226 nt of DNA. Source: Escherichia coli (GTDB lineage Bacteria; Pseudomonadota; Gammaproteobacteria; Enterobacterales; Enterobacteriaceae). The notes under the pieces are model-generated. The model was not told the DNA's origin and did not search any database. It saw only the letters and a list, made by a program, of their open reading frames with translations. The stretch lies in assembly GCF_003334335.1 (NCBI RefSeq), contig NZ_QOWQ01000236.1; one strand, 5' to 3'. Below are positions 1-226 of this stretch, one piece after another; within the stretch, counting starts at the first letter, position 1; each line of letters starts with the position of its first letter. Made by a program: the position numbers and the translations under genes.

Positions 1-226
1 AGGATCTGACGCCGGGCGAGATGACGGCAGAATCCTACGATGATAACTACCTGGATGATGAAGACGCGGACTGGACCTCGACCGGGCAGGGACAGAAATC
101 TGCAGGTGATACCAGTTTTACGCTGGCCTGGAAACCGGGTGAGGAAGGCCAGAAAGGGCTTATCGCATGGTTTGAAAGCGGGGATGTCAGGGCCTATAAA
201 ATCCGGTTCCCGAATGGTACGGTGGA
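1..226 (+). CDS. V: Phage major tail (tail tube) protein, lambda gpV family; internal fragment, partial at both ends (frame 3, full codons 3..224)
   Basis: Frame 3 is open across the entire window, while + frame 2 has several stops and + frame 1 has stops at 7-9 and 22-24. The 74-aa translation matches, from memory, the lambda gpV segment [74 protein letters not shown] with about 11 substitutions. The leading 'ag' at 1-2 fits the end of a lysine codon preceding D, as in lambda (..VK-DLTPGE..). No in-frame start or stop is present, so the gene extends beyond both edges. Not verified by database search. Confidence 0.9.

Follow-up and report, generated by a model that had tools for sequence, protein, structure and literature searches.

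The window, by which is meant the whole 226-nt stretch of DNA that was analysed, lies inside a single gene. Its positions 1-226 on the plus strand are codons 44-117 of a gene of 248 codons; the reading frame begins at base 3, and translation gives a single open frame across all 226 bases. A prophage locus of E. coli JE86-ST05 (called L001 here) is 100% identical to the window at L001 12001-12226, and this stretch is enclosed by a V gene of 747 nt (CDS 11874-12620). The full V protein matches the lambda tail tube protein 6p3e with E = 2e-106 over residues 1-244, the N domain structure 2k4q with E = 1e-87 and the C-terminal Ig-like domain structure 2l04 with E = 6e-11, and homology to gpV thus covers both domains. 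It also matches PHROG 41 (major tail protein) with E = 8e-113. The gene order in L001 and in the annotation of phage PhiR5_1 is Z, U, V, G, T and the tape measure gene H, which is that of a lambda-type late operon. PhiR5_1 is 98% identical to the window and its record names the gene major tail protein V. Because of the locus position and the protein matches (6p3e, 2k4q, PHROG 41), the sequence identifies the window as an internal segment of a lambda gpV-type tail tube gene in an E. coli prophage, and the part that it encodes is the N-terminal tube-forming domain. Prophages in seven complete E. coli genomes match the window at 100% identity, and there are 3,904 places with at least 80% identity to it in 1,663 of the 5,426 E. 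coli genomes.

Lambda gene V (PDB 2K4Q, 6P3E) is homologous to the gene in the window, occupies the same slot between U and G and shares about 81% DNA identity with the window region. The two differ at the C-terminus, where the Ig-like domain of the window's allele is another mosaic module. The N-terminal ~400-480 nt of V are ~93% identical between prophage groups while the C-terminal Ig-like domains are unrelated in DNA, and therefore a mosaic recombination junction is placed at the domain linker, at V nt ~410-480 (L001 ~12283-12353), just 3' of the window. As whole proteins, the two V groups with differing C-terminal domains are 76% identical. The tail genes of lambda are expressed from a Q-antiterminated late promoter located far upstream. 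Judging from the conserved gene order, the tail genes of the JE86-ST05 type prophage would be expressed in the same way.

An earlier note on this DNA had pointed to a near-consensus sigma-70 promoter-like motif within the V coding sequence. The motif is present as it was described. A -35-like hexamer, TTGAAA, is found on the plus strand at 172-177 (t172, t173, g174, a175, a176, a177) and matches TTGACA at 5 of 6 positions. Exactly 17 nt separate it from a -10-like hexamer, TATAAA, at 195-200 on the plus strand, which matches TATAAT at 5 of 6 positions and lacks the final T. The spacer at 178-194 (plus strand), GCGGGGATGTCAGGGCC, is 17 nt long with 76% G+C by our own count and corresponds to codons Ser102 to Ala107. 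An alternative -10 register, TAAAAT, is found at 197-202 on the plus strand; it satisfies the TAnnnT pattern and lies 19 nt from TTGAAA. From promoter geometry, transcription from either -10 register would be predicted to start 7 +/- 1 nt further on, in the zone 206-210 of the plus strand.

All the letters of the motif belong to codons. TTGAAA takes two bases from the end of Phe100 (TTT), all of Glu101 (GAA) and one base from the start of Ser102 (AGC), and TATAAA is Tyr108 (TAT) followed by Lys109 (AAA), so that the earlier description of the latter as simply the Y-K codons is correct. The same note had stated that lambda carries TTTAATGAA at the equivalent position, and this was confirmed in the lambda record. 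The lambda gene reads TGG TTT AAT GAA at this place, followed by GGC GAT ACC CGT and then GCC TAT AAA ATC. The codons TAT AAA ATC are the same in lambda, and in place of the -35-like hexamer lambda has TTAATG, from Phe-Asn-Glu (TTT AAT GAA). The -35-like hexamer does arise, as had been proposed, from the substitution of N-E by E-S, since lambda has F-N-E where the window has F-E-S (TTT GAA AGC). Neither hexamer is present in the V genes of phi80 and CP-933K.

Can a motif of this kind bind RNA polymerase containing sigma-70? Within the -10 element, position 2 (A) and position 6 (T) are the most critical and most conserved, and sigma captures both of these bases when the strands open. The usual sigma-70 spacer is 16-18 nt and a spacer of 19 nt is disfavoured. 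A sigma-70 consensus scan of both strands of the window, which demands both of the critical -10 bases, gave no promoter site, because TATAAA ends in A and has no T at position 6; the scan gave no terminator either. TTGAAA is a -35 element of the TTGnnn type. A TAnnnT core is not present at 16-18 nt from it, as TATAAA is at 17 nt and TAAAAT is at 19 nt. Auxiliary elements are also lacking in the window. There is no TGn extended -10, the bases before the two -10 registers being GCC or CTA, and the 22 nt before the -35 hold no A/T-rich UP-like element. Positions 151-230 have 51% G+C, and the region has about 51-55% G+C. Exhaustive libraries of -35 and -10 elements (16.8 million variants) have identified TAnnnT as the dominant determinant of promoter activity (bioRxiv 10.64898/2025.12.02.691827). 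In the study of Zehentner et al., even non-canonical starts for which no promoter is predicted show a conserved A and a conserved T at -7 (PMC10469882). The claim that the motif is near consensus with optimal spacing therefore stands as a count of matching letters, 5 of 6 in each hexamer; as a statement of promoter likeness it does not, because the mismatch in the -10 hexamer falls on the near-invariant final T.

The motif was also scored with a simple weight matrix. The matrix was built from textbook consensus frequencies, and its scores are approximate. On this scale the 17-nt register (TATAAA) scores 10.3 bits, with 10.28 bits used as the threshold for counts, and the 19-nt register (TAAAAT) scores 12.25 bits, which is the top-scoring combination in the window. 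On the same matrix lambda pR scores 13.4 bits, lacUV5 13.8, wild-type lac 10.1 and the full consensus 18.3. The best score on the minus strand of the window is 5.4 bits. That no other site in the window scores higher counts against reading the motif as due to chance, and the score of 12.25 bits is within the range of weak natural promoters on this scale. It could thus be a genuine weak intragenic promoter for sigma-70 (or sigma-S), probably using TAAAAT with the 19-nt spacer. From such a promoter the 3' part of V, together with G, T and H and the later tail genes, would be transcribed constitutively at a low level in the lysogen, independently of the Q-dependent late promoter. Weak activity of the motif would be unsurprising, since about 10% of random sequences of ~100 nt act as promoters in the work of Yona et al. 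(PMC5906472). All the same, a genuine weak promoter is considered unlikely. Of the two registers, the one at 17 nt is without the final -10 T and the one at 19 nt is disfavoured in its spacing, and the G+C-rich context offers neither TGn nor an UP element.

The frequency of such sites also bears on this question. In the 24.2-kb late-operon locus, counting both strands, there are 8 sites of at least 10.28 bits compared with 11.3 +/- 3.5 in 200 dinucleotide shuffles, and 2 sites of at least 12.25 bits compared with 2.1 +/- 1.4. Sites with at least 10 of 12 matches and a spacer of 16-18 nt number 4 in the same locus, compared with 2.5 +/- 1.5 in the shuffles. A consensus scan on 15 kb gave 4 sites where 7.4 +/- 2.6 were expected. 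Across 0.96 Mb of lambdoid prophage DNA there is one 10-of-12 site per 9.4 kb, a rate that amounts to 0.024 per 226-nt window and to about five per prophage. When the window itself was shuffled, a 10-of-12 site appeared in 1.4% of cases. Given the peptide F-E-S...Y-K and the late operon's own codon usage, the probability that the exact hexamers are spelled is ~0.036, which is not rare across a prophage of ~50 kb. The frequency of the motif does not exceed chance, and this chance-level frequency speaks against a weak promoter. The caution in the earlier note that the motif may be due to chance was well placed, as sites this good occur at chance frequency.

The conservation of the hexamers was studied in two ways. 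A degenerate back-translated pattern of the motif peptide was run over loci from IMG/VR, phage and E. coli records and gave 202 matches with only 4 haplotypes over the 35-nt stretch (the 'WFES' clade). Both hexamers are constant in 202 of 202 matches, and in the spacer there are three positions with synonymous variation, 182, 188 and 189. The pattern was also run over 100,044 species, each represented by a single genome, where it was found only in E. albertii, in one Collinsella MAG contig and in two unrelated HTH proteins. From these sequence matches the 'WFES' clade is taken to be shallow and confined to Escherichia. The Collinsella match is a 4,765-nt contig of a 'Collinsella sp.' MAG (JAIJJM010000220.1; Actinomycetota) that holds an Escherichia-type V gene segment; over the 35-nt pattern it is identical to the common E. 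coli haplotype, and the contig is probably a binning contaminant.

The second set consisted of 68 clean haplotypes of the N-terminal 480 nt of V, from which four haplotypes that were frame-shifted, misaligned or without an ATG start had been left out. In this set 55% of the degenerate third positions in the N-terminal domain are variable. The four synonymous third positions in the hexamers (173, 176, 197 and 200) are all invariant. For four positions chosen post hoc in a shallow clade this has P ~0.04, rising to ~0.10 when singletons are set aside, and among all 6+17+6 placements that could be chosen 5% are just as invariant. The invariance may be a weak, post-hoc hint of constraint. A weak promoter is one possible source of such a constraint, as the hexamers stay constant in the 202 matches and the 68 N-terminal haplotypes while nearby synonymous sites vary. 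On the other hand, lambda and other V clades lack the -35, which means that the motif has no family-wide function. The codons TGG TTT and GCC TAT AAA ATC are identical in lambda (TATAAAAT and TGGTTT are among the stretches compared), and since lambda has no -35, the constancy of these codons needs no promoter. The peptide that the motif encodes is the most conserved segment of the protein, even in lambda, and for this reason protein-level selection together with recent common ancestry would suffice to explain the constancy.

It could also be proposed that the constancy of window positions 174-203 reflects some other constraint at the nucleic acid level, such as a mosaic recombination junction, mRNA structure or a translation-rate signal, and that the likeness to a promoter is incidental. 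This stretch has 3 variable sites, compared with about 6 in 30 nt for the rest of the N-terminal domain, and V genes are mosaic, with a shared N-terminus and differing C-terminal Ig-like domains. However, the deficit is small and was seen post hoc (P ~0.05). The encoded peptide is the most conserved even in lambda, so that selection on the protein and recent ancestry are enough, there is no Rfam family and no notable structure signal, and the mosaic junction is ~200 nt further downstream, near V nt 410-480. A constraint of this kind is therefore regarded as very improbable.

What would a transcript that begins at the motif contain? A start at ~207 would fall in codon 112 of V, and the ribosome-binding site and start codon that come next are those of G at L001 12642, 435 nt downstream of the predicted start. 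The only in-frame internal start 3' of 207 with a plausible Shine-Dalgarno sequence (AAGGAG) is GTG codon 214, which leaves 35 codons; a truncated V product from this codon was considered and judged to be chance. The first strong terminator-like hairpin downstream on the plus strand is at L001 18598-18621, between I and J, and the transcript is therefore not expected to reach the lom-like gene. In principle, a transcript from a weak promoter could thus span G to I. Against such a promoter are the ~435 nt of untranslated RNA ahead of the next start codon, and tail chaperones and a tape measure protein made alone in a lysogen would have no obvious use. A search of the window against Rfam at E <= 1 gave two snoRNA chance matches only, both far below threshold, and the whole 24-kb locus gave no match at the gathering threshold. 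Neither a terminator, nor an RNA family, nor an in-frame start with a convincing ribosome site points to a purpose for the putative transcript. Nothing relevant was found in the literature on internal promoters of the lambda late operon.

Mapped transcription starts are available for a homologue. In E. coli O157:H7 EDL933 (NZ_CP008957.1) the motif TTGAAA-N17-TATAAA is found in two prophage V genes. In CP-933M the gene is EDL933_RS06355, on the plus strand, with the -35 at 1283562 and a predicted start at about 1283597-1283602. In CP-933V it is EDL933_RS15765, on the minus strand, with the -35 at 2997382 and a predicted start at about 2997344-2997347. The tail genes in the BP-933W and CP-933K regions of EDL933 do not have the motif. 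Compared with the window, the EDL933 V sequence differs at two spacer bases (182 and 189) and at several flanking bases. Between the two EDL933 copies there are 3 differences in the first 100 nt that a transcript would contain, and reads can therefore be assigned to one or the other.

Zehentner et al. (2023) determined primary 5' ends by Cappable-seq on this EDL933 accession in eight conditions with three replicates each, and Table S7, which lists internal sense starts, also takes in weak starts classed as degradation-level (PMC10469882). The comparison concerns the CP-933M copy, a near-identical gene with the same hexamers, under uninduced laboratory conditions. In Table S7 no start is given at ~1283597-1283602 on the plus strand, the predicted site in EDL933_RS06355 (PMC10469882). 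The sole entry for this gene there is 1283367, 91 nt from the start codon, with an RRS of 1.84; this start was seen in stationary minimal medium only and is ~230 nt upstream of the predicted site (PMC10469882). The entry that follows it is in RS06380, at 1287903 (PMC10469882). The earlier note had named the lack of a start near 205-210 as the result that would speak against its reading, and for the EDL933 homologue Table S7 has no entry at the position that was predicted. E. coli has a great many intragenic starts, with 4,637 called in EDL933 (PMC10469882), and this would favour a weak promoter in the window. The absence of a listed start at the site in EDL933_RS06355 in eight conditions with three replicates argues the other way, as the method did register a weaker start elsewhere in this gene. 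The suggestion that the motif could work as an intragenic promoter reading into the downstream tail genes was thus not borne out: nothing begins nearby, G being 435 nt away, the motif occurs at chance frequency, and its homologue has no start at this site in the table.

Other features of the two EDL933 prophages were seen in the course of this comparison. In CP-933M (L217 33028-34016) the major capsid gene RS06350 is truncated and, through a deletion, joined straight to the V gene RS06355. The V gene is without its first ~4 codons, and FI, FII, Z and U are missing; CP-933M therefore cannot make tails. A weak start is given at 1283071, inside the capsid remnant (PMC10469882). In the Stx1 prophage CP-933V the tail chaperone gene G (L216 31492-31914; NZ_CP008957.1 2996492-2996914, minus strand) contains a start at 2996822, 92 nt inside the gene. 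The published table of gene-associated starts gives it in five of the eight conditions, and it is the only gene-associated start there between the tail fibre and ninG genes (PMC10469882).

The motif can be compared with several known kinds of site. Canonical sigma-70 promoters (TTGACA-17-TATAAT; lambda pR, TTGACT-17-GATAAT; lac P1, TTTACA-18-TATGTT) share with it the TTG start of the -35, the TA start of the -10 and the distance of 17 nt. The window motif differs from them in lacking the final T of the -10, an extended -10 and an UP element. It is also placed inside a gene, 435 nt ahead of the nearest start codon downstream, and no start has been mapped to it. A closer likeness is to the spurious or pervasive intragenic sigma-70-like sites of E. 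coli, which, as described in two studies, are also consensus-like hexamers on the sense strand of an open reading frame that result from codon choice and are not tied to a downstream start codon (PMC10469882; PMC5906472). The sites in the EDL933 internal-start catalogue have a mapped 5' end, whereas the homologue of the window motif has none at this place in the same data (PMC10469882). The window motif further differs from the sites of that catalogue in having no TAnnnT core at optimal spacing. The promoters of lambdoid prophage morons, such as lom and bor of lambda and sodC between I and J in CP-933M, are active in the lysogen and are similar in the idea of late-region transcription that is independent of the late promoter. 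Morons, however, are separate intergenic insertions with their own promoter and terminator that carry host-fitness genes, and the window motif has no insertion, gap, gene of its own or terminator.

The prophage that holds the window also has an intergenic gap outside it. Between the tail assembly gene I and J there is a gap of 249 nt (L001 18424-18672). It contains the best promoter-like site of the 24-kb locus, TTCACA-16-TATAAT on the minus strand at 18560-18533 with 11 of 12 matches, and ~100 nt past this site a minus-strand hairpin with a T-run at 18453-18437. The strong plus-strand terminator at 18598-18621 is in the gap as well. The putative minus-strand RNA of ~100 nt folds at -21.6 kcal/mol (z = -1.95) and has no Rfam family. 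The sequence of the gap can be found in 102 phage records, most of them from Stx-converting phages. An identity with the anti-sRNAs AgvB or AsxR was ruled out, as those sit downstream of PR'. The element is possibly a small moron or sRNA unit. In CP-933M the I-J gap (L217 40007-40534; NZ_CP008957.1 1290007-1290534) holds sodC, of the Cu/Zn superoxide dismutase family, on the minus strand, which shows that the I-J junction is a moron insertion site in this phage group. A start at 1289899/1289900, just beside sodC, is active in anything from several to all eight conditions (PMC10469882).

Taken together, the motif in V is best read as a by-product of protein coding and not as a dedicated promoter, with a probability of roughly 85%. 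A conserved beta-strand region written in common E. coli codons (TTT GAA AGC ... TAT AAA ATC) happens to spell TTGAAA-N17-TATAAA. The holoenzyme with sigma-70 would be expected to bind it poorly, as the 17-nt register offers no final T to region 2 of sigma and the TAAAAT register has a 19-nt spacer; the G+C-rich spacer and surroundings and the lack of an extended -10 and of an UP element would further disfavour binding. Any initiation that does occur would be at the pervasive background level. The RNA would have no ribosome-loading site for ~435 nt and would be made by a polymerase that is not modified by Q; with such a long untranslated leader it would be exposed to Rho and would likely become a target of it.

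A different view would be that TTGAAA...TAAAAT acts as an internal promoter that the Escherichia 'WFES' V clade has conserved and that works only under certain conditions; it might need a particular sigma factor, an activator, a certain supercoiling state or relief from silencing. Were this the case, low-level transcription of G, G-T and H, or of a regulatory RNA from the 3' half of V, would be expected in lysogens under conditions outside those of the EDL933 study. There is little reason to expect this, and a promoter of this type is thought to be highly improbable.

If the motif were active in one way or another, part of the prophage tail operon would escape the switch that is set by Q antitermination, which would be of modest interest and would involve no new kind of mechanism. 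As a by-product of coding, the reading preferred here, the motif matters little. It illustrates how readily coding sequence arrives at such motifs by chance, with about one in every 9 kb of lambdoid prophage DNA. It may also serve as a worked example of how two hexamers that each match at 5 of 6 positions, at a spacing of 17 nt, overstate the likeness to a promoter when the mismatch is in the final T of the -10 element.
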